In this document: positions 22,464-45,453 of the stretch, piece after piece
How the letters are laid out: every line of letters begins with the position of its first letter
How positions within the stretch are numbered: position 1 is the first letter of the stretch
From: Eledone cirrhosa
Lineage: Eukaryota
Direction of reading: 5' to 3'
Assembly: GCA_964016885.1 (NCBI GenBank)
Contig: OZ024749.1
Location: forward strand, 10,168,001 to 10,232,000
DNA: 64,000 bases
Made by a program: the position numbers and the translations under genes
The notes under the pieces: model-generated
What the model saw: the letters and a program-made list of their open reading frames with translations, nothing else
Databases searched by the model: none
Told to the model about the DNA's origin: nothing

Positions 22464-22995
22464 ATAAAAACAAATAACGAAACGAAATTAAATTTCGTTT
22501 CGTTTGTAACTCACTTTTGTATGACTGACGCTTAAACAATTAAGTCAAAAATGTACATCCACATATGTATACTGAAATACTAGTATGCATATGAATACAC
22601 ACACGTATACATATGTAGATGTACCAAGTTTTTCACTGGTCACTTTACTGTGAGTGTCCAGCTATTCTGTATGTAAACACACAGACAAACCGGTTTTTAG
22701 AGTCATACTGGTTTTTGAGGAAACACCTTTCCTCTATTCTCCAGAAAGCCAGACAAGGAATATTGAACTAGTTTCGTTGTTGTTACAACTCATCAGCAAT
22801 ATTTACCTATCTTTCGGCCTTTCTGGAGAATCGTAAAAGCACATATCGTTATATGCTTTTTCTATGAAAATTAGTAGTGGGCAGACTAATTTGCATAGAG
22901 CGTGAGTACGTACCGGTTCAACGGAGACGATAAAAACAAATAACGAAACGAAATTAAATTTCGTTTCGTTTGTAACTCACTTTTGTATGACTGAC
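22464..22995 (-). mobile_element. Putative non-autonomous retrozyme/Penelope-pLTR-like element: 466-bp monomer plus 66-bp terminal direct repeat, with an internal hammerhead
   Basis: 22464-22529 is identical to 22930-22995. (TA)n lies on both sides. Hammerhead at 22759-22803. No convincing ORF. Confidence 0.65.
22759..22803 (-). ncRNA. Minimal type I hammerhead ribozyme
   Basis: Minus strand: AATATTG CTGATGA GTTGT-AACA-ACAAC GAAA C-TA-G TT^ CAATATT. Stem I 7 bp perfect, stem II 5 bp, palindromic stem III region (AACTAGTT), complete core. Confidence 0.85.
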
Positions 22996-23064
22996 TTAAT
23001 TGTATATATATATATTTATATGAAAAAGAACACAAGAGCGTCTACAACATCAAAAGATTTTTAT

Positions 23065-23115
23065 TAGCTAACAATGTTTCTTCCTTACGTGTAACCGTAG
23101 GATTCATCAGAGCTA
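23065..23115 (-). ncRNA. Minimal type I hammerhead ribozyme (slightly degenerate)
   Basis: Minus strand: TAGCT CTGATGA A TCCTACG-GTTACA-CGTAAGGA A GAAA C-ATT-G TT^ AGCTA. Core intact; the stem II closing pair is an A.A mismatch. Confidence 0.65.
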
Positions 23116-23561
23116 TAAAAGGGGTTTGATTGGTGTTATGGACTCTACCAACCAAACACCCAAGAACAAAGAGTAAAGAGAGTAAAGAGCAAAAGTAGGG
23201 GACGATAAGTCTAATTTTGGTGCGGGAGGGTGGGGTGTTGGTCCTTGTTTACTAGCTGCGGTCATATTCATTCCCGGGAGTCGGGTGGTTAGCTGAACCA
23301 TAGATGGGGTGGCGTCGATAGTATGGTGCAGAGGGTGCGCAGAGGCTACACAAACACAAAGGGCGTAGAATACATATATACATATAGCGGAGGAGAAGGT
23401 ACATGAGGTAATTAGAAATGGAAGAAGAGTAATAATAATAATTTATAATTAATAGTGTATAATAAGGCATGGGGAAGATTACACTATAATAAGGTATAAA
23501 GGTAAGAATAAGGTAAAATATAAAGGAGGATAAACGTGGAAATAATATATATTTATAATAT

Positions 23562-23706
23562 ATATTTATTAAAATAACAGATTAGAGTTTAAGCAAAGAA
23601 TCGCTGCTTTCACCCCTAACGGGATCTTCTGAGTTTCAGAAGATCCCGTTAAGGGTGAAAGCAGCGATTCTTTGCTTAAACTTTAATCTGTTATTTTAAT
23701 AAATAT
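23562..23706. repeat. Near-perfect palindrome, ~71-bp arms, 3-nt loop
   Basis: 23562-23632 is the reverse complement of 23636-23706 with 2 mismatches. Confidence 0.95.
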
Positions 23707-23792
23707 TTGCTCTACGGTTCTTATATATTTGATATATATTTATCCTTATCGAGCTCTCTTTGGATTTTAGTCTTTAAATATATTATTATTAC

Positions 23793-23828
<36 letters not shown>

Positions 23829-23883
23829 AAACATATGTAAAAAGTAAACAGGAATAACAACAGAAACTACAATATATCTATGA

Positions 23884-23884
<1 letters not shown>

Positions 23885-23937
<53 letters not shown>
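23885..23937. repeat. (TCTA)n microsatellite at the 5' junction of the Tx1-like LINE
   Basis: Directly visible. Confidence 0.95.
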
Positions 23938-24119
23938 TATTCTGTACGTGCTGACTCTGGAGCCACTATTGCGGAAGCTGGAGCTGCTGCAGGGCACCCC
24001 GTTGGGACTGCGGAAAACGGCGTCGGCTTATGCCGACGACGTGACAGTAATGGTGTCGGAAACCTCGGAAATCGGGGCGATCGGCAACTTACTGCAGGAC
24101 TACGAAAGGCTCACAGGAG

Positions 24120-26086
24120 TATAGCGAAGAACTCGGTGTGTATGAAATGGGACAAGGAGACATGGTTTGTGTGTATAATATTTAATCAACAATTTAACAG
24201 TATAGTTAACATGTCAATGAATAAACGAAAGAATGAAGCAAAGTTAGTAGTTACCGTTTTGATTGCCAGGCAAACGCAGGCTGGCAGAAGACGCCTGGCG
24301 AAGGCCAGGCGCCGGAAGGGCTAATGAGAGGGAGAGAGGCGAAAGCTATTCGTTTTATAGGGCTCTGTCGGAAGTTACAGAAAGGGTTCTACTTCCCGTC
24401 TAGATGTTGTTAATCTATTGGGGTTGTGAGTCACAACAAGGGAGGCTACTGCTACATAACCTCCCGCCAGAATTTTAGAATATAAAAATCGAATGAAATA
24501 TGTAGCAAGTTGGCGAGAATGTTGTAACAGGCATGAAAATTACGACAAAAGAATGTTTGCAAAAATCAATGATAGATATCAAAGGTAGCCAACCGCTCTT
24601 GGCCAGAGAACGACTGGACATCTATCTATCCATCACCCAAAGATACAATGTAATAACGTAAGAGAAGAGCTCAAAGCTCAAATGTACAAAATATAGTTCA
24701 CAGGTGTGCAATCACATGACAGCAGGAAAGAAAGTGTGTTCCAAAGAATGAATGCAGGTGGTTTCTGTTCTGTGGTATATCGTGAAATTTCCAACCTCCG
24801 AATGGATTTTCTCACAGAAAGAGTGCTGCAAAAATAAATTCTCTGGATTGTTCTGCTGGTTTTGGTTGTTGGTGAAGCTGTGTTGCTGTTGATGTTGTTG
24901 TCTCGCTGAGTGAGCGTATTCGGTGTTTAAATTCACAGTAAAAAAAATTTTTTTCGGAAAAAATGAGTTGCGCAAAGTGCTAGAAATAACAGCCGAAGTT
25001 GATGGTCGATGTTGAGAATGCGTTGACCTGGAAGGGTCAAGATGCCAGCGACCAAAGAAATAAGCATTCTGAATAAATGCGCAGTTTTCAACGGCAAATT
25101 TACGTTGTAGATTTTTAAACCGGCAGATAGGAGAATATAGCTTAAGGCTGAAGAATCCTTGGCGAGAAACGTTATCTCTGGCGTGCGGCTATCTCTGTGA
25201 GTCGAGAATTTGTGCTGCCTACACGTGCCAATACAAGGTTAAGTTAGGTTTAAAAAAATAATATTTCTAACGCGTGAGAAATTGATAGTGCAAGTGTGAA
25301 AGTGACAATGATGAAAAAGAAAGGCTTCACTTAGCATAATTATTGGTGTGAACTTTGGAAAAAAAAAACTTGAACGATGAAGAAAACGATGAAAACAAAA
25401 GACAATGGTTCATCGAAAATAAATGTTCCTGTTGAAATGTTTTTAAAAAAATATCAAATTTCTTTTTTTTTTGAAAGTGTTCGTTGTAAGAAACGAGAAA
25501 CATATATATATATCGTGAAATGCGACAGTTAGTTGATGCGTGAGAGAAAAAGTCTGTCTGTGCGAAAATTTCACATGTGCGTGGTGTGTTCGTCTCTTTG
25601 ACTGAGTATTTTCATAGTTTGTCAATAAATTTGTTGTGTATTCGTAATGTTACTCACACAACACCAGATTCTGCTATTTTTTCTTTTTTCGGGGTGACCA
25701 CTTATAACAATGAACGGCTGCGTGTTGGTATCACGTCAGGGTTACCAATATAGTGAGATACTCTGGTGAGTATGAAATGGGACAAGGAGACATGGTTTGT
25801 GTGTATAATATTTAATCAACAATTTAACAGTATAGTTGACATGTCAATGAATAAACGAAAGAATGAAGCAAAGTTAGTAGTTACCGTTTTGATTGCCAGG
25901 CAAACGCAGGCAGGCAGAAGACGCCTGGCGAAGGCCAGGCGCCGGAAGGGCTAATGAGAGGGAGAGAGGCGAAAGCTATTCGTTTTATAGGGCTCTGTCG
26001 GAAGTTACAGAAAGGGTTCTACTTCCCGTCTAGATGTTGTTAATCTATTGGGGTTGTGAGTCACAACAAGGGAGGCTACTGCTACA
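24120..26086 (-). mobile_element. Small non-autonomous LTR retroelement (Gypsy-like/TRIM-like)
   Basis: LTRs at 24120-24456 and 25749-26086, near-identical, TGTAGC...CTATA on the minus strand. 4-bp TSD GGAG (24116-19, 26087-90). PBS TGGTAACCCTGACGTGAT and PPT-like GGCGGGAGG. No pol. Confidence 0.88.
25730..25747 (-). promoter_or_regulatory. Primer-binding site resembling the complement of the tRNA-Trp 3' end
   Basis: TGGTAACCCTGACGTGAT versus recalled tRNA-Trp PBS TGGTGACCCCGACGTGAT (2 differences), next to the LTR. Confidence 0.75.
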
Positions 26087-27721
26087 GGAGCAAAACTGAA
26101 CTCGGACGAGTTTGTCGGTTTACAACTCGGAACGTGGAGAGGCAAACCGATGCTGTCTGACAGCATCGTCCAACGCTGGATGGAAGGACCGGTGAAATTG
26201 CTTGGGGTCTGGTTCGGTCCAGACCTCCAGGTGGAGAAAAACTGGAATGAGGTCACAGCCAAGGTATTTGCGCTCACCCAAAAGTGGGCAGAGTGCAAAC
26301 TATCCTTGAAAGGTCGAGCGTGGTGAACACTTTTATAGCATCCGTCATCTACTACCGCTTGACTGTCGTGCCTTGTCCCCGTGAACACCTCACCAAGATG
26401 GAACGCATGCTCTTCCAGTTCCTTTGGAAAAAGCAGGCACCCCTGTTGAGGAGATCCGTCTGCTGTCAGCACCCTTCCAACGGAGGGCTGGGAATGCCGT
26501 GGCTGATGATGCGCAAACACGCGCTGAGGCTGCGGCATCTACAGGTATTCCTCACCGACCAACCGGTGTGGGCACCGTTTGTGAGACAGGCATTCCCGCA
26601 ACTTGTCTCGCTGGCGGGGCTGCAGTCCTGGGTCAAGCGGAGACCGAAGAAGATGGGCGCCTGGCACATTGAATGCGCTCAGGCGCTCACAGTCCTCGGT
26701 CAAGCGGGCACAGCAATCAGTGGAGACTCCATTTCATCATTCTATAGAGGGTTAGTACGTCACAAGGGCGACGACGTGCTCGGAGAGACTCTAGGCATCG
26801 AAGACAACGAACTCACCAGTCTGTTTGGTAGGACTTTCCGCCGGGGACCTATGGACAACTTCCAGAGGTGCCTGGCCTGGCAGTGCTACCGAGGAGCTCT
26901 GCCAGTTCGAGACAAGATCTACAGGCACGGACGCCTCGGCAAGTATCCTTCCTTCCAAGAGGAGATGTCCAAGATGCGGGCAGGACATTGAAACTGACTT
27001 GCACGCAATTGTACACTGCCCGGGCGTAACCGACCTGTGAAACTACGCAGAACAACTGCTGTTGCGTATGGGACAAATCCAGTTGACTGCCGAGTCCATA
27101 GTAAGGATCAAACCGCCAACTTCTTTCAAAAACGGAAGAGAGGCGGTTTTCCTCTGTATAGTGGCTATGGTGAAAGAGGTTATATGGTGGACGAGATTGA
27201 GAGGACTGAGGACAGATGCCTTTCTCTCCGGACAACAACTCATTCCCTTCTTCAGGTTCCACTTTAGAAGGAGAATCAGAGTGGAGAGAGAGGCACTTCA
27301 CCCCAGTAAATTTACTGAAAGGTGGGTGAATGTGGCAAAAATGGCCCGTGTAATTGGGCCTTCTCTGTATATAAACCTGTAGGTTGAAGAAGAGAGCAAA
27401 AGGAAGAAAGGAACACTTGCATAACCCGCTCCTGAAGTTGTGGCACCTCCCCCCTATTGGGGATTCCGATTGTTAAATTTGTTTGTTTCAATATTTTTAC
27501 ACGATTGTATGTAAAATCCCCGGCATGTGTCCTTGTTTTGTCCACTTTTCTTGTGCGCCCTTGAGGCTAATAAAGAAACATATCTATCTATCTATCTATC
27601 TCTGTGTCTATTTTTTCTTATAGTTGTGGTGTTTTGTGTGGGTAGATAGGTGTTGGTAGTAGTAAAAGGGATGATAGTAGTATTTGATGTGGGGGAGGGG
27701 GGCAGTATTATTTTTAGCAGT

Positions 27722-27900
27722 ATTGGTAGTGTCAGACAACATACTTTGTGGCATAGAGTTCCGGCCCTTTATGTTCTGGCTCAATTCCCACCAAGGTTAG
27801 CTTTGTTGTTCATCCTTACGGAGTCGATAAAATAAAGTACCAGTTATACACTAGGGTCGATTTAATTGATTTCCTCTTCCCAAAAATTGTTGGCCTTTGG
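27722..27900 (+). mobile_element. Diverged tRNA-SINE copy
   Basis: CATCCTTACGGAGTCGATAAAATAAAGTACCAG core with a degenerate tRNA head. Confidence 0.7.
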
Positions 27901-27983
27901 AGTGGAGAATGGGTGGGGGAGAACCCAAAGTAAATGCTGTCAGGGTGTTTTTTTAACCAAGGCCCACCCCACAGGTTTTGCAT

Positions 27984-28125
27984 CACCACCACCACTAACA
28001 CCACTACCACCAGCATCGCCACCACCACCGCCACCACCACTACCACCCCCACCCCCACCATCACAACCACCACCACCACCACCATCGCCACCATCATCAC
28101 CACCACCACCACCACCACCACCACA
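27984..28125. repeat. (CAC)n microsatellite
   Basis: Directly visible. Confidence 0.95.
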
Positions 28126-28189
28126 ACTCTACCTTTCGTTACATTTTTAATTACATCTGAACTATAAGTAAGGAAAATGTTTAAGTATT

Positions 28190-28282
28190 AACTTTGCCTT
28201 TCATCCTTACGGGGTCGATAAAATAAAGTACCAGTAATGCACTGGGGTAATTGCTAGCCTTGTGCCAAAAGTAGAAAGAATG
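28190..28282 (+). mobile_element. Partial tRNA-SINE copy
   Basis: Core GCCTTTCATCCTTACGGGGTCGATAAAATAAAGTACCAG. Confidence 0.8.
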
Positions 28283-29004
28283 ATTAAAATCTAGGATACT
28301 GAGGTGAACACGTAACAATCACATCAGGCTTATCTGGTTTCTCGAGATATGAGTAAAGCGGACATAAGCAGACCTGACCAGTATTCCATATCTTATATAA
28401 TAGATCGACAGAAGAGGGGACTTACTGGAATTGATAATTACACTCTTACTTTCTGTAGAGATAAAACCACTATTCTTCTTTTTCTTACTCTCCCCACCCC
28501 CTCTCTCTCTTTCTCTAGCCCTCTCTCTCTCTCTCTCTCTCTTTTTCTCTTCTCTCTCAACTTCTTTTACTCTATTTTTAACTGCTTCTCTCTCTCTCAC
28601 TCTCTTCATCACTCCCTTCCCCTCTTTCTTTCAATCGCCCTTTTACTCTCTCTCTCTCTTTCTCTAAATAATATAATATAATTCGATTCTCAACCTGTAC
28701 ACCAAGTCCCTTAATACTGCTAGACTGTTTTCCTTGTAATATCACATACACCATAGCTGTCTTATTATCTCCCCTTGATTGTAGCTCATCATGTCCTTGA
28801 ATATAGCGTAATGCACCACATCTCTCTCTTACATTATAGCTAAACACATCATGTCCATAATTGTACTTTACACTATATCATTGATTAGAGTTAAACTCAC
28901 CATGTCTTTGAATGAAGCACCACAACTTTCTCCTTAAGTAAAATTAAACACATGTTGTCCTTCAAAATAGCTAAACACCATATCCTCATGGAATACAACT
29001 AACT

Positions 29005-29216
29005 CCATCATATCCTCTTTAAAGACAGTTAACCCTGTCATGTCCTATTTAAAGACAGTTAACCCTGTCATGTCCTCTTTAAAGACAGTTATCCCTCTCA
29101 TGTCCTCTTTAAAGACAGTTAACCCTATCATGTCCTCTTTAAAGACAGTTAACCCTCTCATGTCCTCTTTGAAGACAGTTAACCCTATCATTTCTTCTTC
29201 AAAAATAATTAACCCC
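29005..29216. repeat. 30-bp minisatellite (CATGTCCTCTTTAAAGACAGTTAACCCTNT, ~7 copies)
   Basis: Visible tandem copies, with more degenerate copies upstream to ~28780. Confidence 0.92.
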
Positions 29217-29539
29217 CACCAGATCAGACTAAAGAAACTATTTTAATTGATATATCTTTTACTATCTACTGGTCACATCTTGCAGATATTATAAACCTAC
29301 ATAATATTCTTTGATTAAAACATCATTAACTAACGTTGTTTTATTCTGTACTTCTATACTCCTTGTATTAAGGTTGTTTGTCCATCATGGCATTTCAGTG
29401 TCGTAGAAATGCTTAGCGGTCCTCATTTTCTCTTCAAGTGTCCATTCCTTCATTAAGTTTAGCCTGCCAGCATTCAACAGTGACCAGGGTATAGCCAAAA
29501 GGCTACGGAGCCAAAAATGTAAGTCAGGCGAGAACCAGT

Positions 29540-29750
29540 GTACCTGTCCATTTCTAAGAATGTCACTGCCAGACAGCAAGGTATTCTCTCTACCTAAACA
29601 CCGCTCTCTAAATCCATCCTTCAGGAGACAGTCAAGGGAGGGCCAAAAAGGGTCAGACAGAAAATCCTGGTCCGACAACATCAAAGACTGGGCAGGTTAC
29701 AACACTGAGACCTTTCTATGTATGATGGAGAATAGAGACCAGTAGCGACG
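29540..29750 (+). mobile_element. Decayed LINE ORF2 C-terminus (RTE-like)
   Basis: Fragments KHRSL...RKSWSDNIKDWAG resemble the conserved LINE 3' end. Confidence 0.5.
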
Positions 29751-29759
29751 GCTGACTAT

Positions 29760-29876
29760 TAGTTACGTCCCTTTACGATCTGAGTTCAAATCCCGCCGAG
29801 GTTGATTTTGCCTTTCATCCTTACGGGGTCGATAAAATAAAGTACCAGTAATTGCTGGTCTAAAGTAGAAACAATT
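29760..29876 (+). mobile_element. Partial tRNA-SINE copy
   Basis: B box GAGTTCAAATCC plus the SINE core. Confidence 0.8.
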
Positions 29877-30124
29877 AAGTATATGAACACTAACTTAACT
29901 AGAGTTCATTGTGCTGATGTCATCTCTCACTTATCTAGCTAGATAACCCTCTCAATATAAAGACACTTAAGTTTACGCTACCCTCACTTTCCACACAAAA
30001 ACTAATCAACAATTTCAATACATAGCCTACTTTAAAGACTGACAACTTAAAATTATGTTTAACTCTCACCTTCATAATTGAAAGGGTCGCGTTCACCCCC
30101 ACCGCACCTAAGTTCGTCTTCACC

Positions 30125-30657: not shown

Positions 30658-30716
<59 letters not shown>

Positions 30717-30820: not shown

Positions 30821-30894
30821 AACCAAAGATTAATATGGTTCATTGATTACTCAATGAATATACTGAAAAGACTGCGGAATCTGCTACCCATGAA

Positions 30895-31338: not shown

Positions 31339-31389
31339 ACCAGAACAACCTGCCACCCTCTACACACCATCATAAACTGCGAGCAGGGT

Positions 31390-34152
31390 ACAAATTGTTG
31401 TCCTTAAATGCTCGCAGTTTATGAAACAAGATACATCTGTTCGAATCCTACGTCAGAAGCATCGACCCTGACTTCATCACAGTCACGGAAACATGGACAC
31501 ATTCCTTACTCTGTGATGGGGTTTTCACCATTACTGGGTACAACCTTTTCCGCAAGGACCGCATTAACCGCCGTGGTGGTGGTGTGATGGTCTACGTTCG
31601 TTCAAACTTTTCGGTAATTCCTTGCTTTGATTTGAACGATTCACAGGAAGAAGTTTTTTTCTGTGACATACGTATGACCATGTCAACACTTCTGCTTGGT
31701 GTTGTTTATCGACCCCCAAACTACCATCAGGACACACAGCTTTGCGATATCCTCAGAGTTGCTGCCAAGAAAACAGCCACTTATGTGTTTATTGCAGGTG
31801 ACTTCAATCATCCTGAGATCGATTGGGAAACCTTTCGTTGGCCACAGGGTGCAAACGATTTCCTTGAACTAGTGCTGGACTCAAACTGGTCACAAGTAGT
31901 CACCTCTCCAACAAGAGGTGACAACACTTTGGACCTGATCTTCACCACTACTCCTGAAGTGGTTATCAGTTGTACTACCTCTAGGCGACTCTGATCATGC
32001 TATGATCATTGCCAATCTGGCACTTGAGGGCAGCAACAAAAACAAGGGCCATCTCCAATCTGCTTGCTTTGATTGGAAGAGGGCGGATTGGAACTTGTAC
32101 TGCACTGAGCTACAGCGCCCAAACTGGCATGAGATGTATAACTCTGGAGATGTGAACTCTATACTCCAGAGCATCCTGGACTCAATATGGATAGCGTGTG
32201 CAGCATCAGTGCCACGGAAGCGGAAAAATAACCACCCCAAAAGTGCAATCTGGGAAACTTCAGCGGTTCGACTTGCCAGGAAAGAACGTCGGAACGCTGA
32301 ACGGGAATATAAACTGCATAGATCAGATGCCAACAGAAAAAAGCGGAATAAATCTTCTAACCATCTCAAGCAAGTGACAAAGAAGGCAGTGCTTGAATTT
32401 GAACAGTGCATCGCAACCAATCCTGACAGTAAGGTGTTCTGGAAATATGTTCATTCAAAGCAGAGACCTCACTCTCCAGTTGGTCCTCTTCGCAATCCCC
32501 ACACAAGCCAGATCACTGACGATCCCAAGGAATGCGCAGAACTCATTGCTGAGTGCTATGCAAGTATTTTTACTGTTGAAGACCAGAATGTACCATCTCC
32601 ACCATCTCTAACATCAAATTCCATAACAACTATGGAATTTACACCTGCAATGTTGCGACGTCACCTTAAGAATAAGCGCAACTATGCCTCCCCTGGTCTT
32701 GAAGGTGTGACATACCTGCTTCTCAAACGTGGCGGGGATTTCCTTTTGCGCCAGCTTTCTTTTTTCTTTCAATACTGTCTCAGCAATGGTGCTACTCCGG
32801 AGCAGTGGAAAACTGCCAGTGTCATTCCCCTGTTCAAAAAGGGCAACCGCATGTCACCTGTCAACTATCGTCCAGTCAGTCTTACTAACTGTATGGCCAA
32901 ACTGATGGAATCCTGTGTCAGAGAAACACTTTGGAACTTCTGGAGCTCTCACAGCCTCATCCGGCCCTCACAGTTTGGATTTATCCCTAACTCCAGCTGC
33001 TGTGATCAGCTTATCGAGTTTCTTGAGGACATCACCCGGATCACTGACAGCGGCTCATGGGTGGATGTTGTTTACCTTGACTTTGCTAAGGCTTTTAATT
33101 CTGTGCCACACAAAAGACTTATGGCAAAACTCTCTGCAATGGGTGTGAGGGATGATCTTTTCGACTGGCTGAAATCCTTCATTCTCAGCCGAAAGGAAGT
33201 AGTCACGGTTCTAGGACAGCATTCTTCACCATATGAGATGTCATCTGGTGTACCACAGGGATCTGTTCTTGGTCCTCTTTTGTTTGTGGCATATATTAAT
33301 GACATAGATGCCAACTTACAGAATGCCACGGTACTAAAATATGCAGATGACATCAAGCTGTACCTTGAAATCAAAAGGACTGATCCTGAAATTTACAACT
33401 CTTTCCTACAATCAGACCTGGACACAATGCAGCAATTGATCACAGACTGGCAACTGAAGCTGGCTGTGGACAAGTGTACCACCATGCATTTTGGAAGGAA
33501 AAATCCAGCGTCCACATACTCCCTCCACAACACTGACATCAAAAAGTCCTCTTGTGAACGTGACCTGGGCATTACTGTCAGCAACGATTTGCGTTGGACA
33601 AAGCATGTCTCTAAGATTGTCAAGAAGGCCGAGGGTGTCTTGGCATCACTCAGCAAGACCTTTGTTAGCCGCTCTCCAGCCATCTATTTAAAACTGTATA
33701 CAGCTATGGTGCGACCACACTTGGAATTCGCATCATCAGTCTGGAACCCCTATCTTGCTCGGAACATTGACCTCCTGGAAACTGTTCAGAGACGTGCAAC
33801 CAAGCGCATACCCTCCATCAGACACCTACCATACTCTGAACGCCTTGCTTCCCTGGGCATGGATTCATTGAAGCTCCGACGTCTGGCAATGGACTTGGTG
33901 AATACCCACAAAGTTTTTAACCATCTCGCCAACTGCAACCCTGAGCGCCTCTTTGATCTCCATGTGTCTAACACACGTGGACATGCCTACAAGATAAGAA
34001 AACAGCACAGCTCCCATGACTTTCGCAGACATTTTTTCACGCTCAGAGTTGCTGAAGCATGGAACAAACTGCCTGCGTCAATTGTTAGCTGCCGAGACAC
34101 TGCATCCTTTAAGACACTCATGCTTCCCAAAATACGCCAAAACTACACCTGA
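31390..34152 (+). pseudogene. CR1-type ORF2 (APE + reverse transcriptase), disrupted by a stop (~31422) and a frameshift (~31980)
   Basis: The APE frame (31584-31994) shifts to the 32002-34152 frame at LGDSDH. The 716-aa RT segment is uninterrupted. Confidence 0.9.
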
Positions 34153-34537
34153 TGTACCCCTTCCATACACATGCACACATGTGTGTATCATGACTCGTGC
34201 ACTGTTCATTTTACTGATGTTTGTGCATTGCCCTATGTACTGTACATGCACTTTTTTGATGAGTTGTGGTGCACCTGGGCACTGTGCACAATATTTCGTT
34301 ATTGTTATTATATCATGACTCATACACTGTTTATTTTCCTGACATTTGTACATTATTCTATGTACTATACATGCACCTTTGATGAGTTGTAGTGCACCTG
34401 AGCACTGTACACAATAATTTCATTATTATTTATTTATAGTTTTACAATAGATTAAAAGCACTCTACAATGAAGTTTTTGAAGTTATTATTATTCAGAATA
34501 ATAATAAATGAAGACGTTAACATAATCAAAATATATG

Positions 34538-34599
34538 TTTTATGATATATATTTCGAAGGTACTGTGCTGTTTTTCCAGTACGTCCTCATCAGCTAAAA
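34538..34599 (-). ncRNA. Type I hammerhead ribozyme (left-arm copy)
   Basis: Minus strand: TTTTAG CTGATGA GGACGTACTG...CAGTACCTTC GAAA TATATA TC^ ATAAAA. One mismatch at the base of stem I. Confidence 0.7.
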
Positions 34600-34903
34600 T
34601 ACATGAATTGATGTATGACATACCTCAACTGTCTTAATGGTTCAATTCCAGTATTGGAAAACTGCCAGTGTCATTCCCCTGTTCAAAAAGGGCGACTGCA
34701 CGTCACCTGTCAACTATCGTTCAGTCAGTCTTACTAGCTGTATTGCCAAACTGATGGAATCCTGTGTCTGATGTATGACATACCTCAACGGTCTTGATAG
34801 TTCAATTCCAGTATTGGCCCTTTTTGAACAGGGGAATGACACTGGCAGTTTTCCAATACTGGAATTGAACTATCAAGACAGTTGAGGTATGTCAATTCAT
34901 GTA

Positions 34904-34965
34904 TTTTATCTGATGAGGACGTACTGAAAAAACAGCACAGTACCTTCGAAATATATATCATAAAA
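34904..34965 (+). ncRNA. Type I hammerhead ribozyme (right-arm copy)
   Basis: TTTTAT CTGATGA GGA-C-GTACTG [11-nt loop] CAGTAC-C-TTC GAAA TATATA TC^ ATAAAA. Stem I 6 bp, palindromic stem III. Confidence 0.8.
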
Positions 34966-35009
34966 CATATATTTTGATTATGTTAACGTCTTCATTTATT
35001 ATTATTCTG

Positions 35010-35065
<56 letters not shown>

Positions 35066-35165
35066 GTGGGGTTTTTTTTTAACAAAATGAAAAATAACCG
35101 AGGTGTCCTACACGAGTGAAAGTATAAAGAAAAAGGGATGAAATCGAAAATGCAACTGGAAAGAT

Positions 35166-35348
35166 AATTGTTTCTACTTTAGGCACAAGGCCAGCAATTA
35201 CCCAGTGCATTACTGGTACTTTATTTTATCGACCCCGTAAGGATGAAAGGCAAAGTCAACCTCGGCGGGATTTGAACTCAGATCGTAAAGGGACATAACT
35301 ATGCTGGAAAGCATGGCGTCCGACCCTCTACCGATACTGCCAATCCAC
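35166..35348 (-). mobile_element. Full tRNA-SINE copy
   Basis: Reverse complement of 35808-35990, with A and B boxes. Confidence 0.85.
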
Positions 35349-35807
35349 CGCCAATCCACTGCAACTGGAAAGATAATGGTCAAGAGAAAGGGATGGGAGA
35401 ATTGTTCTGGTTCAGTGAATATGGTTAGTTCGCTGGGGTGTCAGAATTCAGATTTTCTATTGAATAAAGAAAGTAAAGATATGTATGTTTATTTGTGTGC
35501 TTGTGTGTGTGTGTGTTGTGTGTGTGTGTGTTTGAATTTCTTTACTTAGAAAAAAGGTGGCTCACGAAGGCTTTTTTTAAATAAACGTGATTTGATTGGT
35601 TATAAATGAAATTTGGCTGTCACGTGAACAAGTTTTCATTACATTTTTGTGCCCTTATTTGTAAATCTATTCTGTAGCCTTTATAGAGAATGTTATGACA
35701 AGGGAAAGATAGCGGTCAATAGAAAATCTGAATTCTGACACCCCAGCGAACTAACCATATTCACTGAACCAGAACAATTCTCCCATCACTTTCTCTTGAC
35801 CATTATG

Positions 35808-36090
35808 TGGATTGGCAGTATCGGTAGAGGGTCGGACGCCATGCTTTCCAGCATAGTTACGTCCCTTTACGATCTGAGTTCAAATCCCGCCGAGGTTGAC
35901 TTTGCCTTTCATCCTTACGGGGTCGATAAAATAAAGTACCAGTAATGCACTGGATAATTGCTGGCCTTGTGCCTAAAGTAGAAACAATTATCTTTCACTT
36001 TGCCTTTCATCCTTACGGGGTCGATAAAATAAAGTGCCAGTAATACACTGGGTAATTGCTGGCCTTGTGCCTAACGTAGAAACAATTATC
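35808..36090 (+). mobile_element. tRNA-SINE plus tandem partial copy
   Basis: A box TGGCAGTATCGG, B box GAGTTCAAATCC. The core is repeated at 35998-36090. Confidence 0.85.
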
Positions 36091-36593
36091 TTTCACTTAT
36101 CATAAAATTCTCTAAAAAGGCTACATGAAAATTTAATGAAAACTTGTTCACGTGGCAGCCATAATTTCATTTAAAACCAACCCCCAAAAATCCTTCGTGA
36201 GCCCCTTTTTTCAAGTAAAAAGAAATTCAAACACTCATATATGAAAAAACAACCTGTGACAACCCCCCCCCCCCCCCCCCCCCCCCACTCTTATTTGAAG
36301 AACTATTGTAACGCGAACTGGCGCGAAATTTATTATAATTATTGACAAACCAATCAAATTACTTCTCGAAAAACCTGGCATTTCGAGCCACTTTTTCCAT
36401 ATAAAACAAGTAACATTCAGAGACCAACCAGATGTGAGAAAAACCACAGACCCTCCATCTCAACTCACCTTTTGAAAAGCAGAAGAACTGCGAAACCGGT
36501 AAAGGAACCAAATAAATATATATATTTTTTTTAAAAATAAGACTCTAGTTGCATTTTCGATTTCATCTCTTTTTCTTTATATATATATATATA

Positions 36594-37285: not shown

Positions 37286-37296
37286 ATATATATATA

Positions 37297-38300
37297 CTAG
37301 CCGAATTACCCGCGCCTTGCTGCATTTCACACATTTTTTTTTGTAAGAAAATGGTGATTGATTTTAAATCAGTGATATAATTTATGGAGAAAATCTCTGC
37401 ATTTCAATATTACTCAATGTAAAATGTAATGCATGAAAAATTGGAAAACATTATTTTTTGTGATATATCAAATCAAAATTACATTATTAAATCTTTTTCT
37501 TATTTTGTTTCTTGTAAATCATTTTTTCAAAATATCAATTCAAAACTTGATCATTTCATTTTTGTGTAAGGCATTATTTTCAAATTAGAAATTCAAAGTT
37601 TAATTATTTATTTTTTAACAATAAATACATGAAAATATATTTCATACTTTGTCCCAATGAAGAACTTCGGGATAAACAACATTTCTTGTCTTTCTTTGAT
37701 TGGCTAAAATGTAGAGATGTTTTTGAAACAGCCACATAAAACATGTGGGTTTGTCAGATCTACACTAATAGTTTTGAAAGTTTGTCCTTGACTCTTATTG
37801 ATGCTCATAGCAAAGCATGGCCTCACTGGGAACTGCAGCCTCTTAAATGTAAAAGGCAACTCGCTATCACTTGGTATAAGTGGAATCCTCGGAATGAGAA
37901 GAGCTTGACCTTTGTAAGTCCCGAATATAATGGTTGCTTCAATCAAGTTCTCGTGCAATCTTGTTACAACACATCTTGTTCCATTTATTAGCCAAAATGT
38001 TCACTATAGGGGGTTTAACCCCCATTAGGGTGTCTTAATATTATTGAAATTTGCTGAAATTTTGTGAATAGACATCATATCTTGTCATTTACCTATGGTT
38101 TAAATTTCATATAAGTCGAAGGGAAACAATTTTCAGTGGATTTTGTGCCCCCGGGAACCCTTTGATTAAAATTAAATATACTTATCCAAGTACCCTTGGC
38201 AATGTAGTTTCAGAATAGATATGGTTATGGGGGTCTATCGCCAAAACCATAGGAGGAGTTCGTGATCAAACAAACAGACAGGAATTACAACTTTTTATAT
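37297..38300 (-). mobile_element. Internally deleted Helitron retaining the helicase C-terminus
   Basis: Minus-strand 3' end GCAGCAAGGCGCGGGTAATTCGG-CTAG|T. Helicase fragment at 37704-37990. Confidence 0.78.
37704..37990 (-). pseudogene. Helitron RepHel PIF1-like helicase C-terminal fragment
   Basis: LIPRIPLIPSD...PFTFKRLQFPVRPCFAMSINKSQGQT is the diagnostic Helitron/PIF1 motif. Confidence 0.9.
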
Positions 38301-40005
38301 ATATTAATGTACGAAATTGCATTCAAGGATGTGGCTGAATAGCTTTATAGATCCTGCCAATTTTTCCATGCATTTGCTGAAAGCACGAACAGCACGCCCG
38401 GGTCACTCTGTACAGCTGTTTATCATAAATGATAGGAAGAGCATCCAGTTGTAGAAACCATGTCAAAAAAGGATGAGAGGACTCGACTCTTCAGTTGTGT
38501 TAAAGATATGACGAACTCTCGAGTGTTGATGTGGGCATCATAAAACATCCCTACAGACCTGTCAACTCTCCCCGTCCGACGGGGAGATCTCCCACCCACT
38601 TAGGAATGGGTGAGAAATGACTTCTCTTGTGAAAATGTGTATATCTTTCATTATGTAAAATCTCCCCATTTTGCTTCATTTCTCCTCGTTTTGGGGCATT
38701 TTTTTTCATGGTACTCCTCGTTAGATTTTGGCAAGTCTGCGCCCAGTACACTTTGTAAAGTGTTTGATGATAGGAAAGGCACCCCGCTGTACAAAACTTG
38801 CCAAACTGACGGTTAAAAAGGTGTTTCAGCTGTGTCGAAAACATAGCAACATCCCTACTGCTGGAGTCACAATAGCAAAATCTAACCTTTGCTATCAGGG
38901 AAATGGACGTTAAACGATGATGATACACATACATCATCATCGTCGTCATTATCTTTTGTAGAATACATTGTCTACTGTGCTCATTTCCTAACTTTTAAAA
39001 GCTTATGAATTTTATCCAACTATTTTGCTCATGGTCAAACTCCAGATCTCTTTGCCCTTAAAATCTGTCCAGTGACTCTTTCCTTAAACATTCTAACCTT
39101 ACAGTATGGTCAGATTTGTAGCAAGCAATGGCACTAATTCATAGCTGCGGAATAACTTGGCGTACTTTGTCACTTGCCAGCCCTTAGGCTTGGCCGTGTA
39201 GGAATAACAAAGTCGACTTCCGCCCAGCAGTTGCTTCGCGCCTTTTTTTACTTCTACCAAACAGTTGCGGTGGACACAAGAATTCACTAATTACATTCCC
39301 GGTCGATACTGGAGATACTAGCGCTTAAGATGTAGCGCTTGACAAGGAACTTTGGCCCTCTATTCACTCGAGTTGCGTTCCAGGTTTTGACCTGAGAGGA
39401 CCTAATGCAACTCGCTACTGAATTTTGTGCAGCTTGCTTCACGGTGAAACTATGTGTTAATTCGTTTTAAAGAGAATAAACCATTATTACAAGTTTGCAT
39501 ATGCTTACGGATTTTTTCATCAACTATGGAATCTATTACTAAACGTAAACACGCAGCCTACCAATTTATATCATACTTAATGATATCCTCTCCGTTATCA
39601 ATAGAGAATGCATATATGTATACAGACGTACAGTAGTATGTATATATATATACATACATGCACACATATATATATGTACGTATGGATTTACCGAACATTT
39701 ACATTTATTATAATGTTCGGTTTGTTTGTTTGTAAACAAATATATATATATACACTTGTATATATATATATATAGAAGTGTAGTAGAATAATCGAGTATC
39801 GAAAAATCGGCGCACGAGTTCACGATAAACAAAATTCGAAATGAGCGGCAGAGGGCTCAATAATTCAGATAAATCAGAGCTATAACTATCGTTAAAATAC
39901 CGACACACATAGAACATGTCTAAAATCAACCATACGACCGAAAAATTACGATCTGGAAGATTCGGGACACTCAGATAAAATATCAATAAATCAATAAATC
40001 AAATG

Positions 40006-40053
<48 letters not shown>

Positions 40054-42555
40054 TTCGCAACTAACTGCACCAGGGTTCCTGTTCCTCAGGGAATCACACT
40101 GTATGGTATACCTGTTGATATAGATCCAGCCCCTGCTTTCCCGGGTCCTGTTTCTGATCATAATGCAGCTACAAAAGCATCGAATGTTGATGAATCCTCA
40201 AATCTCAAGGGACGGGGTTCATCTGATGGAGAAGAAACAGGTCCTAACCAAACAACAAGCAAATCTCGCTTGGCTAGCTGTAAAAAGCAAATAATAGTTA
40301 GCTCCTTGAACACCAGAACCCTCCTTCCAACAGGTAGACTCCAGGAGCTGGCAGAGAATGCTAAACTTCAGAACATTGACATCCTTGCGGTCCAAGAACA
40401 CTGCTTTTTCCACCCAAAGGATGATCTCAAGTATCACACCCTAGGATCCTACCAACTTGTCACCTCTTCAGCCACCAGGAACCCTGTCAATGCCTTTGTC
40501 GGAGGAGTCGGCTGCCTTCTCTCATCTAAAGTCAGCAATAATCTTCTCATCCCATGAAAAGAATAGACTGGAAAGCCGTTTCTTCCAACAAACAACTATC
40601 CAATAGCTTCACACTTCAAGTCTATAACAGATTTCAATCTCTCTCAACTTCTGACATCAATGATGATAATATTGAGGATGTGTATGACTGTCTTAAGCAA
40701 TCAACAGAGGAAGATGCACTTGCCACCCTACCTAAAAAGAAAAGCCGAAGCCAAATGAAACCTAGTGCCTCAGAGAAGGTAGTTGAGGCAAGGGCCCATC
40801 TTAGGTCAATATCCCAATCTCACCATCAATCACCATCTCAAGGGAAAAAGATACAGCTTATCATGGCCAAAAAATCACTAGACGACGCTTATCTTAATGC
40901 TGAAGCCGACTATATCTCAGGTAGGATTGATCAGCTATCGCAACATCACATCAGCAAACACCATCATCTTGCTTGGAAGGTTGTCAAAGATCTTTCAGGC
41001 AAAAACTCAAACTCTGCAGTTAGAATCAAAGGAGGCTCTGCCAAAAAACGTCTTGAAAATGGGTCTGCTCATTTTAAAAACCTTCTAGGGAAAAAGTCCA
41101 GACTCCCTGATAACTATCAACTGCCATCCGTTCAGGTTTCAGAGCCTTTAGGAATCAACACCTCTCCTTTCACCATGCCTGAGCTCAAAGAAGCCATCAA
41201 ACAGCTCAAAGCCTCAAAAGCCTTTGGGCCGGATAATATACCTACCCTGATTTGGAAGGATGAGCATTTCCACATCCTTTTGCTCTCAACTTATGTAACC
41301 ATACTTTCGAGACCAATAAACCACCTAGCGTCTGGCATGCAGCTCAAATTATCCCCATGCCCAAAAAAGGAGATCTTTCTTTAGCCACCAACTATAGAGG
41401 AATTTCTCTCATGGCAATTGCTGCAAAAATATACAACAAGCTTCTTCTTAACCGCTTAATCCCATTTCTTGAGCCAATCCTTCGTAACAACCAGAATGGA
41501 TTTAGGAGAGGTAGATCAACACTTAGCCAGATTCTCTGCCTTCGCCGACTTATAGAGGAGTCCCAAAACCGCAATCTAGACCTTGCACTCATCTTTGTTG
41601 ATTTTTCAAAAGCCTTCGACTCAGTTGACAGGTCGGGGATGTTTGAAATTCTACAACTTTATGGGATTCCTGATAAAATCATCGCGGTCATACGTGTAAT
41701 GTATACAGATACCAAATCAACTGTCCTGACCCCAGATGGGGAAACACCACCTTTCTCAATCCTCGCTGGAATTTTACAGGGCGATACCCTTGCCCCGTAT
41801 CTATTTATCATTGTTGTGGATTATGTTTTGCGCATGTCTGTGGATAGGATTCAGGATAGGGGATACCAACTACAGCCTAGGAGAAGCTCACGCTACCCAG
41901 CAAAATACTTGACCGACACCGACTTTGCTGACGACATCGCATTGATCAGTCGGTCACTGGAAAATGCTGAGAGTCTTTTGAAGCCATTAGAGCAAGCGTC
42001 CAACTGTGTTGGACTGTACCTCAACGAATCCAAGACTGAGTATGTGAACAGATGCGCAAACAGCCCAAACTACCCCATCAGAAACCCTTAATGGTACCAC
42101 TCTTAAGCAGGTGGAAGATTACAAGTATCTTGGCGCATATATCTCCTCCTCCAAAAAATATTTTCTAACCAGGAAGGGTATGGCATGGTCAGCGTGCAAT
42201 GACATGCACGCCATATGGACATCTCAACTTACCAACAAGCTAAAACAGGAAATATTCCAAGCAACCATTAAGCCCATATTACTTTATGAATCCGAAACTT
42301 GGACACTAACATGTCCAAACTCCCTCGAGCCTCTGCCCTTCTAAAATCCCGGAGAGCTCAATTTGCTGGCCACTGTCACCGTGCCAACAATGAAATCATA
42401 TCCGCTCTCTTGCTCTGGAACCCTGACTCCAGCCTGACTAGGAGTAGGAAGCTGTCATTCCCTGACGTTATCTCTAGGGACAGGGAATTCTGAGGCATGA
42501 GAGTGAGATCCATCATCTCGACAGTAGTCGACGAATGATGATGATGATGATGATG
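40054..42555 (+). mobile_element. RTE-clade LINE, 5'-truncated, with internal deletions and frameshifts
   Basis: The APE N-half (SLNTRTL, AVQEH, GGVG) joins directly to the linker. RT motifs NYRGISL, QNGFRRGRST, FVDFSKAFDSV, GILQGDTLAP, FADD, YKYLG. (TGA)n tail; (TA)n flanks. Confidence 0.9.
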
Positions 42556-42574
42556 ATATATATATATACACAAT

Positions 42575-42716
42575 ATATAGATCAGTTTTATAAATAAATA
42601 TTGACATACCCTTAAAAAATGCAACCATTACTGTTGGAAGCTCCCGGGAGCTTCCAACAGTAATGGTTGCATTTTTTAAGGGTATGTCAATATTTATTTA
42701 TAAAACTAATCTATAT
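42575..42716. repeat. Loopless palindrome, ~71-bp arms, centred on CCC|GGG
   Basis: 42575-42645 is the reverse complement of 42646-42716 with 1 mismatch. Confidence 0.95.
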
Positions 42717-43340
42717 TGTATGTAGTTTAGAAAGCCACAACAATGCAGATGGGAAATCTCGAGGTAGGAAGTGAGTGAGAAATAGGAGAAAAGTGAAAAT
42801 TGAGAGAAACGAAAATGAAAACAAAACAAAGGTAGAAGGGTTACCGTAGTGGAGATTTAATCCCAATATTTCGGGCTCACGCCCATCAACGGGGGAAAGT
42901 TCCAAAAGGGGGGGGGGGGGGGGAACAGGCTAAGCTGGAGAAAGTTGTATTGTAGTTAAAACATAGGAATGCCATAATGGGGAAAATTCAAACGAGGGAA
43001 AGAATGCGCGTGCGCGTGATAGGCTGTGGCAAAAGCTACTGACCAATTGGGTTAAATCAATAGGGTGCGCTAGCGTGTGAAAGCCGTAAAATATGTGTGT
43101 GTAAATATATATGTGTGTGTAACTGTGTGTGTATATGTGTATGTGTGTATGTATGTGAGTGTGTGTGTGTGAAAGATAGTGGGCCGTAGAAGCTGGAAAT
43201 CAAAGGGTGTGAAATGTGGTAGGTTGTATAAACATGTGTGCGTGTATAAATATAGATGTGTGTGTGTATGTGTATGGGTATACATATAAGTGCGTGTGTG
43301 TGAAAGATAGTAGGCCGTAGGCTGTTACTGGTCACTATGG

Positions 43341-45380
43341 TTAAATTAGCCATGTCAGCTCATTTCTCTCAGCCCGGTTGTTAAGTGGGGGTCTGAGGTT
43401 CTTAATAACAAGTGCTTCCTTTATCCTTAAGGATCCGATGCTGCGTTCAGTCGCTAGGACTGTGACCAAGGGTCTGCCCTGTGGGTTTCCGCATTTAAGG
43501 ATGTGTTTACGGAAGGAAGATGCGTTGGTGTTGACATGTTCCTTGATACGAACATGTAGGGGTCGGATGGTGCTACCTATGTAAAACTTGTTACATTTAT
43601 CGCATTGAATCTTATATACGACATAGGTGCGTAGGCAATCTGCCCCCCGTATCGGGCAGTTGCTGAGGGAACACGTCCCATCTGACTCGTCGGGTTTGTT
43701 GGAGAGGCATCTTCGGAGCGAAGGTCCTGTGTGGGCCAAATGTATGTCAAGTCCCTCCCTCCGTATGGCCCTGCGGATGGCGTTCGTGGTATATTCACTC
43801 AGGTGGGGGATTTTAAAGAAGCACCTGCTTTTATCTAAATTTCTAGTGGGTGTCTGTCTATTGGGTCTGGGGTCTCTAATTCCGTTAATCAGTCGCTTGG
43901 GATATCCATTAGACTTGAGTAGATTACGGAATTGCGTGGTATGGGTGAGACCACCCATCGGGTTGCTGCATCTATTAGTGATCCGTGTAAGTTCATTTAG
44001 GACATAGCCTCTCTTAGCGTTGTTGGGGAGGGCTGAGTTGTAATGCACAAATAAGTCCTTGCACGCTGCCTTGCGGTAGAAGGTGGTGTTTATGTCTCCT
44101 TCTTCCGAGATGTTGATACGGAAGTCGAGGAGGGCGAGTGACCCGTCTTCTCCAGGGTGTTCGATGGTGAAATCGACGTGATGGTCAGTGTCGTTGAAGA
44201 TTTGGTGAATTTCATTCGCCATCTCCCGGGAAGAAGTGAGTATCAGTATGTCATCAACGTATCTGGAGTAGAAGGCGACGGCGTTGGGTTGACAGGTGTT
44301 GAGTGCCTTGCGTTCCAGGTGGTCCATGTACGAGATCGCAAGTATGCCGGACAGACTAGAGCCCATAGGTAGCCCAGAGATCTGTTTGTACGTGTGGCCG
44401 AGGAAATTGAAGAATGCATTATCCACAACGAAGGAGAGGAGTTGGTGGATGTCCGTGTGTGTGAGTCCGAAGCAGTGTAAGTTAGATGCTCGGACTCGTT
44501 CGGTCAACAGGTCGACGGCTGGGGATGCTGGTACGGAGGTATAAAGGGCGACCACATCAAGACTGAAGGCATATCCGTTGTCCTTTCTGGTGTTGGGCGC
44601 CAGATGGTGTAGTCGCTCCAAGACCTCCTTTGAGCTGCAGACGTGGGCTGGTAGTGTGTGTAGAATGGGTTTCAGTAGTGTGGAGAGCAGCCACGATATT
44701 TTGTAAAGTGGGCCCTCCACGCTAGAGACAATGGGCCTGATTTTCAAATCGGGTCCTTGTTTATGGGTTTTCACCAGGTGGTAGAAGGTGGGTAGTTTGC
44801 TGTTTCGAGTCATTATGTTGTTTTTTTTTGTTTTTTTTACCTTCTTTGGCAGTTTTCGTTGGACACAGATGTTAGTCCATATGGTGTTAATGCCTTCCTC
44901 GATTAGAGTCGAGGAGGTCCCTGTGACTTTCGAGTAGAGGCTGTCGTCATTAAGATGTTGGAGAGCTAAGTTGTTGTAGGTCTCTCTCGAGATGACACAG
45001 AATTCTTTCCCCTTGTCAGAGGGAAAGTAAACAGGGTTCCTGGATCTTAGGTTGGTGAGAGTATTAAATTGTGCATTGGTGAGGTTGCGTTTATTGTGTG
45101 TGTGTGTGTGTTGGGAAAGGATGTTAGAGATAGAATGTTTCAACCTGAGTAGTTTAGTGTCAAGTTCGTGGTTGGTGGGTGGGGGGTGGAGTGGGTTGTC
45201 GAGGTGGTACGTGGGGAGTGTGGGGTGGGTTGTGGGGTTGTAATCGATCTCGGTGTTGTTTTGGATGGCGGTTAGCCATTTCAGTTGATACGCTGTCCGA
45301 CAGAAGTTGGTTTCGATGTCGAGTTTCAGTCTATCATCGAGACGCTGTGTAATGATGAACTTGGGTCCGAGGCAGGAGAT
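43341..45380 (-). CDS. Penelope-like element ORF: reverse transcriptase + GIY-YIG endonuclease (open frame ~679 aa, 5' end missing)
   Basis: LGPKF, SDKG, IRPIVS, SLDVVALYTSVP, YKQISGLPMGS, RYVDD, LDF; VVYKIQCDKCNKFYIGST...RIKEH...H; LN. The frame stays open ~79 codons upstream of the tracked TTG start. Confidence 0.95.
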   Translation of the reverse strand: MSCLGPKFIITQRLDDRLKLDIETNFCRTAYQLKWLTAIQNNTEIDYNPTTHPTLPTYHLDNPLHPPPTNHELDTKLLRLKHSISNILSQHTHTHNKRNLTNAQFNTLTNLRSRNPVYFPSDKGKEFCVISRETYNNLALQHLNDDSLYSKVTGTSSTLIEEGINTIWTNICVQRKLPKKVKKTKKNNIMTRNSKLPTFYHLVKTHKQGPDLKIRPIVSSVEGPLYKISWLLSTLLKPILHTLPAHVCSSKEVLERLHHLAPNTRKDNGYAFSLDVVALYTSVPASPAVDLLTERVRASNLHCFGLTHTDIHQLLSFVVDNAFFNFLGHTYKQISGLPMGSSLSGILAISYMDHLERKALNTCQPNAVAFYSRYVDDILILTSSREMANEIHQIFNDTDHHVDFTIEHPGEDGSLALLDFRINISEEGDINTTFYRKAACKDLFVHYNSALPNNAKRGYVLNELTRITNRCSNPMGGLTHTTQFRNLLKSNGYPKRLINGIRDPRPNRQTPTRNLDKSRCFFKIPHLSEYTTNAIRRAIRREGLDIHLAHTGPSLRRCLSNKPDESDGTCSLSNCPIRGADCLRTYVVYKIQCDKCNKFYIGSTIRPLHVRIKEHVNTNASSFRKHILKCGNPQGRPLVTVLATERSIGSLRIKEALVIKNLRPPLNNRAERNELTWLI

Positions 45381-45388
45381 CTATATTA

Positions 45389-45453
45389 TATTTTGTCTGA
45401 TGAAAGCACACCATAATTTAACTTGGTGTCCTTGAAATATGTATAATGAAATA
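45389..45453 (+). ncRNA. Type I hammerhead ribozyme, antisense to the adjacent Penelope ORF
   Basis: TATTTTGT CTGATGA AAG-C-ACACCA [10-nt loop] TGGTGT-C-CTT GAAA TATGTA TA^ ATGAAATA. Stem I 8 bp (2 G.U), stem II 9 bp. Confidence 0.82.

Follow-up and report, generated by a model that had tools for sequence, protein, structure and literature searches.

Type I hammerhead motifs of probable Penelope-type origin, and a truncated reverse transcriptase/GIY-YIG element likely nested in one of them, in repeat-rich DNA of Eledone cirrhosa

Type I hammerhead ribozymes with a minimal or small helix III were described in Penelope-like elements (PLEs) by Cervera and de la Pena (2014; PMC4209133), and their cleavage as dimers is covered there and in a later review (PMC6765202). 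Endonuclease-bearing PLEs (Penelope/Poseidon, Neptune, Nematis and Hydra; Craig et al. 2021, PMC8557442) encode a reverse transcriptase (RT) followed by a GIY-YIG domain with two internal cysteines and conserved histidines; many of their insertions are truncated at the 5' end and accompanied by inverted copies, and (TA)n is preferred by those clades that have a cysteine linker. PLE reverse transcription is reported to begin inside the RNA, downstream of the hammerhead, after an AT-rich nick, and insertion in vitro is retained by ribozyme mutants (PMC11167929). Animal retrozymes have been argued to derive from PLE terminal repeats (2026 preprint, bioRxiv 10.64898/2026.07.22.740005). Here we describe a stretch of 64,000 nucleotides from Eledone cirrhosa (assembly GCA_964016885.1, contig OZ024749.1, positions 10,168,001 to 10,232,000 of the forward strand; hereafter the window, numbered from its first letter) that carries five type I hammerhead motifs, HH1 to HH5, and an open reading frame (ORF) for an RT/GIY-YIG protein. 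The interpretation we favour, and consider quite probable, is that HH1-HH5 are real type I motifs, likely marking where several truncated or non-coding retroelements of Penelope type end on their 3' side, and that these elements were likely copied into AT-rich and (TA)n sites by Penelope enzymes encoded at other places in the genome. The local RT/GIY-YIG element would not be their driver but a truncated guest that likely landed in one of them.

The original prediction had placed five type I hammerheads of four different sequences in the window. When the region 18036-47500 was scanned with a structure-aware descriptor allowing one mismatch per stem, and defined after the motifs were known, exactly these five were found: HH1 (22743..22814, minus strand, C3 at 22796, predicted cleavage after GUU at 22766), HH2 (23065..23115, minus, C3 23110, predicted site 23070), HH3 (34538..34599, minus, C3 34593, predicted site 34544), HH4 (34904..34965, plus, C3 34910, predicted site 34959) and HH5 (45389..45453, plus, C3 45397, predicted site 45445). 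Two sets of 500 dinucleotide shuffles gave means of 0.016 and 0.012 matches and a maximum of one (n = 1,000), so that a similar density is not seen in shuffled sequence. The same descriptor without mismatches recovers four of the five. HH1-HH5 together account for five of the 24 CUGANGA cores present in the window. A further match of a relaxed scan, at 25530(+), was dropped, its stem I being only 2 bp long.

The core CUGANGA ... GAAA ... UH is exact in HH1-HH5, and stems I and II pair in every motif, whereas stem III pairs only in a dimer. Its strands are exact palindromes (ACTAGT and ATATATAT) in HH1, HH3 and HH4, as in two additional motifs, HH6 and HH7, discussed below, and near-palindromes (ACATTGT and ATATGTAT) in HH2 and HH5, in agreement with the mostly palindromic stem III originally reported. 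The 10.1-11.1 pair is G-C in HH1, HH3, HH4, HH6 and HH7, A-U (A10.1-U11.1) in HH5 and A.A in HH2, where a mismatch stands at the base of stem II next to the core; HH3 has a G.A at its first stem I pair, likewise adjoining the core. An extra base between A9 and 10.1 is present in HH6 and not in HH1, HH3, HH4 or HH7. The geometry had been called typical of Penelope-associated hammerheads that act as dimers, and it does agree with published PLE and retrozyme traits: comparison with these supports assigning HH1-HH5 the form of PLE- and retrozyme-type hammerheads, predicted to need dimers for cleavage. Shared with the hammerheads of PMC4209133 are the type I fold, the tiny palindromic stem III, the many sequence families per genome, a majority of solitary motifs left by truncated PLEs, pairs on opposite strands separated by 100-700 bp, and a U3-A8 variant. 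HH3-HH5 depart from that type: the extra base is missing from them, their palindromic stem III measures 4 bp, and stem II is interrupted by a C.C mismatch.

HH1 lies in a retrozyme-like element (22464..22995, minus) made up of one 466-nt unit and a further 66 nt that repeat part of it exactly (22464-22529 and 22930-22995, 100% identity), with (TA)n on both sides (22446-22466 and 23003-23015). The hammerhead is of canonical type, with a 7-bp stem I containing an internal loop. The unit is non-coding, has a GC content of 36% and is 68% paired, and its circular fold of -158.8 kcal/mol compares with -94.8 +/- 6.2 for shuffled sequence (z -10.2, reached by 0 of 60 shuffles), as against fold z-scores of -0.7, 0.3 and 0.6 for three control stretches. 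Non-LTR retrozymes (lacking long terminal repeats, LTRs; PMC7229834 and the 2026 preprint) are likewise non-coding, below 45% GC, strongly self-paired, longer than one unit and equipped with a canonical-type hammerhead. The present unit differs in exceeding their reported 170-400 nt and in amounting, at this locus, to 1.14 units with one hammerhead and not to a tandem of at least two. HH2 belongs to what is likely the 3' end of a truncated PLE (23016..23541, minus; 5' boundary uncertain), consisting of a non-coding leader of about 450 nt, the hammerhead and a 55-nt tail running into (TA)n; no PLE coding match was found within 23016..23541. Upstream of HH2 is a fold-back (23562-23706) with 71-nt arms, each starting with a stretch that resembles a hammerhead core and with a short hairpin; no clear stem III is apparent in them.

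HH3 and HH4 are the arms of a single head-to-head inverted structure (34487..35016), and for this reason the five motifs comprise only four sequences, as had been stated. The two 125-nt arms form a 98% inverted repeat, each with an outward-pointing hammerhead and a tail of about 55 nt, and the core between them holds RT fragments of a long interspersed nuclear element (LINE) at 34636-34771 and 34817-34855, which are antisense to the hammerheads and 90-100% like 32785-32922 (90% for 34636-34771). Stem II of HH4 consists of 3 bp, a C.C mismatch and 6 bp. HH5, which is antisense to the ORF, has the architecture of HH3/HH4 with a different stem II sequence: between HH4 and HH5 both sides are changed in five of the eight counted pairs, none is broken and the C.C mismatch is kept, in a comparison of two families only. 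The shared architecture with compensatory changes in stem II indicates that HH3/HH4 and HH5 are relatives and not independent inventions. Of the several independent families of the original prediction, the plurality holds and the independence is overstated.

The RT/GIY-YIG ORF (43341..45380, minus, 679 aa) may belong to the Nematis clade. It matches Pfam RVT_1 (E 1e-11) and carries a C-terminal GIY-YIG domain scoring 21.9 bits against a cut-off of 22.6. In a 33-sequence alignment the CCHH-type GIY-YIG residues C593, C596, H609, H615 and H626 are invariant, as are the linker cysteines C570, C575 and C582, whose C-x4-C-x6-C spacing differs from the CX2-5CxxC published for Neptune and Nematis (PMC8557442). 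The ORF element further shares with the PLEs of that source the GxKF and DKG motifs, the cysteine linker, 5' truncation, inverted 5' copies and (TA)n preference; unlike them, this copy has no inverted or tandem pseudo-LTR of its own, and no upstream repeat of 42722-43340 was found in the window. An 859-aa relative is 50% identical and aligns only from its residue 191, with homology beginning at the GPKF motif; the ORF is therefore 5'-truncated and lacks about 190 N-terminal amino acids. Its closest relatives (matches P0003-P0045) are 32-53% identical and mostly lie on contigs of 2.7-3.4 kb, about one element in length. Among viral contigs, neither a relative of the ORF nor a match to the HH4/HH5 letter pattern was found. 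A search of sequencing runs with 43200-45560 listed no RNA data set containing this region, a result with no bearing on whether it is expressed.

The ORF element carries a minimal hammerhead of its own, HH6 (42862..42896, minus, C3 42892), which lies in sense orientation 449 nt past the stop codon and had been overlooked. It was found by a relaxed scan that gave no match when the 619-nt 3' region was shuffled 3,000 times. Among the related RT loci examined, the best 80 of 131, hammerhead matches are on the ORF strand in 27 of 29 cases, and of the 17 close relatives that extend to the C-terminus, 13 show a minimal hammerhead in sense orientation, 48-434 nt downstream. HH6 and these 13 have the same layout, namely an extra base after A9, a 4-bp G-C-closed stem II and a loopless palindromic stem III. 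Positions 3 and 8, left free by the descriptor, pair in all 14 rows (six C-G, six A-U, one U-A and one U-G). Percentages of paired positions computed from these rows are inflated, pairing having been the ground on which the rows were selected. HH6 shows all four traits of the PMC4209133 hammerheads, namely the extra base after A9, G10.1-C11.1, a palindromic 15.2-16.2 and covarying stems. It departs from that type by U4C and A6U in its core; U4 and A6 are kept in 13 of 13 relatives, though the descriptor did not require them. The six relatives with A3-U8 in place of C3-G8 (L005, L007, L014, L017, L019 and L026, 48-92 nt after the ORF match) have a pair not met in the accessible part of that paper; U3-A8 is seen in L020 and U3-G8 in L013. 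DNA similarity between the hammerhead elements of the window and the 80 loci is confined to one 21-nt match in two loci.

According to PMC3088659, U4C makes hammerheads less active and variants at A6 have low activity, A6U itself not being among those covered in the text available, and HH6 is therefore likely a weak or dead ribozyme. The altered core recurs in a deleted copy on two contigs of run X7, from another organism, which makes it probable that the change is shared beyond this locus. The core positions of HH6 are not among the 40 shown of 352 contig differences, which is not taken as proof of a consensus.

In three related loci, each encoding a PLE-like RT, that RT is followed by a canonical and an A6U hammerhead standing 755-784 nt apart on the plus strand (L048 at 1710/2481, L062 at 2914/3698 and L064 at 2251/3006). 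In all three the six-letter, non-palindromic stem III strands of the pair are exact complements, stem I is identical in the two members, and some 90 nt following each site are repeated; the regions are 56-68% alike, and no GIY-YIG domain was detected in the matched part of their RTs. This arrangement suggests that each pair may be an obligate asymmetric double hammerhead. A wider proposal, which we regard as speculative and rather doubtful, is that A6U hammerheads form a conserved class of silent partners in PLEs, that the three pairs would cut only at the downstream site, and that HH6 would be either such a partner or proof of PLE spread with a dead ribozyme. A literature search found no paper on complementary PLE pairs; the PLE-dimer work of Lunse, Weinberg and Breaker may cover A3-U8, A6U and complementary-pair variants.

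HH7 (36468..36505, plus, at 36472), also overlooked before, is a candidate with a U3-A8 core, G10.1-C11.1, a palindromic stem III and a 4-bp stem I, and (TA)n lies 15 and 77 nt downstream. Its relaxed descriptor gives 0.085 matches per shuffled region, with one match in 34 of 400 shuffles, and judged by its sequence HH7 is the probable seventh hammerhead of the window. It falls within an element at about 36087-36593, of which a partly matching inverted copy (35123-35711) has no hammerhead.

The motifs may instead be decayed relics that hitch-hike in a terminal repeat, their ribozymes never having mattered for spread. This is possible, though we hold it to be distinctly the less probable view; it is compatible with a Penelope-type origin and differs from our interpretation on function only. 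The in vitro insertion of ribozyme mutants (PMC11167929), the spread of Naiads without canonical hammerheads (PMC8557442), the one flaw or more in each of HH2, HH3 and HH6, and the recurrence of HH6's altered core in a second organism's copy all favour it. The compensatory changes between families, on the other hand, show selection on the fold in ancestors.

The proximity of four motifs to (TA)n, originally put at about 50-300 nt, was confirmed by measurement: from the predicted cleavage site to the next downstream tract of at least five units the distance is 300 nt for HH1, 55 nt for HH2, 55 nt for HH4 and 139 nt for HH5, as against 3,723 nt for HH3. A random position has such a tract within 300 nt downstream in 16% of cases and within 320 nt in 16.5%, so that finding one within 320 nt for four of four distinct elements has a probability of 7.5e-4 under random placement (3e-3 for four of five motifs). 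Small but direct independent support comes from two contigs of run X5, from a second organism, in which the HH5 family breaks off at 45486 and (TA)n follows at once. These observations uphold the claim that the hammerhead families favour (TA)n at their 3' ends. HH3 and HH4 have the same terminal letters, yet (TA)n adjoins HH4 only, from which we infer that the tract is the target and not part of the element.

Such an arrangement might also arise if the HH2-HH5 elements were hammerhead-bearing repeats resembling short interspersed nuclear elements (SINEs), moved by LINE enzymes of RTE or CR1 type, with (TA)n as the simple-repeat tail of a LINE or as TA-rich background. The window does contain two LINE RT ORFs, LINE fragments 90% like a local copy sit inside the HH3/HH4 structure, 20 (TA) tracts of at least five units occur in 29 kb, and the LINE-like ORF region at 40542-42091 is likewise downstream of a (TA)n tract. 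We nevertheless consider this unlikely, since PLEs are characterised by fold-back 5' ends, a palindromic stem III and arms that face outward, the tract is lacking at HH3 despite its terminal sequence being that of HH4, and the HH1 element has (TA)n on both sides.

The original prediction also held that the hammerheads may be mobilised by the RT/GIY-YIG ORF or its relatives. For the local ORF this could not be sustained: some 190 amino acids are missing, it is antisense to HH5, it has its own hammerhead in HH6 and it appears to be a later insertion. The ORF element (42722..45378, minus), a 5'-truncated endonuclease-bearing PLE, is flanked by a 13-bp repeat (42709-42721 and 45379-45391), presumably a target-site duplication. 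On its left, 42646..42721 (plus) ends in one copy of the duplication; on its right, 45379..45583 (plus) comprises the other copy, HH5 and a 139-nt tail, followed by (TA)n at 45584-45642. Public contigs were aligned at 80% likeness and presumably represent other copies of the family. In run X1 one contig joins 42706 to 45380 and two join 42708 to 45379 without the ORF; 12 have the letters of 42694-42707 before 45378, 25 pass from 42721 into the hammerhead core, and contigs have loose ends at 42721 and 45378. The duplication and the ORF-free joints together indicate that 42646-42721 and 45379-45583 are the halves of one short hammerhead element, into whose AT-rich stem I flank the PLE likely inserted in opposite orientation. 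At the 5' end of this HH5 element is a fold-back (42567..42724) with 79-nt arms and no spacer, and four contigs link 42582 to 45380 on opposite strands. Contig depths (HH5 far above the ORF in runs X1, X5 and X6, the reverse in X7) do not measure copy number and were not used as evidence, nor was the lack of cover of 42572-42672 in X6 and X7. The local ORF copy, being truncated and apparently younger than HH5, cannot have moved HH1-HH5; mobilisation by its relatives is plausible. The nesting resembles that of a Penelope element in Adineta vaga (Arkhipova et al. 2013, PMC3846280), where a PLE lies inside another in opposite orientation with a short duplication, and where palindromes at head-to-head junctions and solo pseudo-LTRs also occur; in that species no cross-mobilisation between co-existing PLE types was seen by the authors, and in the window the element receiving the insertion is short, repetitive, non-coding and hammerhead-bearing.

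Under an alternative in line with the original prediction HH5 would be the ORF element's own inverted pseudo-LTR, capping the truncated 5' end, and the ORF family would drive all the hammerhead elements. HH5 does start within 20 nt of the ORF truncation point, and inverted 5' pseudo-LTRs are typical of PLEs (PMC8557442 and PMC3846280). However, 45380-45583 has no match in the element's 3' region 42722-43340, so HH5 has no counterpart at that end; contigs join the flanks without the ORF, the duplication lies on both sides of the ORF element, and the hammerhead of the ORF clade is of the other, minimal type, present at 42892. For this ORF copy the reading is largely refuted, and as a general account we judge it very unlikely. 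Chance matches in AT-rich repeat DNA, in keeping with which are weak monomer folds and eight prokaryote matches to the HH4/HH5 letter pattern, are refuted for HH1-HH6 by the excess over shuffled sequence and the covariation between families, and come into consideration for HH7 alone, given its 34 of 400 shuffles. Those eight matches, in 596 billion bases of prokaryote DNA, had no hammerhead stems when inspected by eye and were set aside as chance.

Several observations weigh against the Penelope-type origin of HH1-HH5 and the later insertion of the ORF element. A PLE profile search of the window matched only the one ORF and gave no coding partner for HH1-HH5 or HH7, so that the PLE-derived label of HH1-HH5 rests on architecture. 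Rfam recognised only HH1, as the HH9 family, with 38.3 bits against a gathering threshold of 52, and gave no match at E <= 5 for HH2-HH5. None of the minimum-energy folds of the monomers has a three-way junction (z-scores -0.7 to -2.1); this fits dimer-type ribozymes and gives no support by itself. A hammerhead match was absent from four of the 17 relatives reaching the C-terminus, of which one has a degenerate motif by eye and one offers only 116 nt of flank. With regard to (TA)n, HH3 sits far from any tract, the threshold was picked post hoc, one tract is common to HH1 and HH2, and with tracts of at least seven units the HH2 distance becomes 604 nt. The presumed 13-bp duplication has one mismatch, and the bridging contigs presumably come from elsewhere in the family and are not the empty allele of this locus.

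Taken with the described behaviour of PLEs, a Penelope-type origin would imply the following course of events. A PLE protein would nick AT-rich DNA, and reverse transcription would start 50-140 nt (300 nt for HH1) behind the ribozyme; because priming would lie downstream of the ribozyme, short copies would keep the hammerhead and a tail abutting (TA)n. Copying that stops early or folds back may account for the 5' truncation and for the head-to-head arms. Two tandem copies in one transcript could pair through the palindromic stem III and be cut as a double hammerhead, while single or outward-pointing copies, such as HH1-HH5, would be expected to cleave inefficiently. The HH1 unit would represent a retrozyme, whose length of 1.14 units results from a circular or tandem RNA having been copied for more than one round, and HH6 would be the ORF element's own ribozyme, likely weak or dead.

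The window as a whole is repeat-rich, animal-type DNA. Satellites take up 1-18035 and 47518-64000, and the sequence in the middle contains LINE RT frames, fold-backs, microsatellites and numerous SINE-like copies. Satellite units of 44, 49 and 56 bp occur at 1-18035, 47518-50136 and 54064-63994, and a unique 1.45-kb stretch is present three times (3724-5172, 7347-8792 and 18003-19444) at more than 98% identity. One non-LTR retrotransposon (31425-34152, plus) has an apurinic/apyrimidinic endonuclease and a 737-aa RT frame; in another (40542-42091, plus), which also lies downstream of a (TA)n tract, the RT is broken across frames. A SINE-like repeat forms an inverted pair at 35148-36007 and is found as at least 10 pieces within 20798-47485. 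Rfam microRNA matches in the window correspond to fold-backs and simple repeats and were rejected.

Each of the traits described has been published: hammerheads in PLEs, a stem III of dimer type, inversions with a head-to-head arrangement and the targeting of (TA)n. A search of literature listings found no paper on cephalopod hammerheads, and the words 'hammerhead' and 'ribozyme' are absent from the main text of a 2026 octopus repeat annotation (PMC13282606). What the role of the hammerhead in PLEs may be is in question, as mutants insert in vitro (PMC11167929) and Naiads lack canonical hammerheads (PMC8557442). The window brings together natural test cases for this question, namely a retrozyme-like unit, two covarying families and a PLE with two core changes in its own ribozyme; beyond these, the findings are annotation of known kinds of repeat. 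The complementary pairs of L048, L062 and L064 are suited to a clean and cheap test of asymmetric double-hammerhead cleavage, and if the altered core of HH6 proves to be the family consensus, spread without cleavage would be shown in nature.

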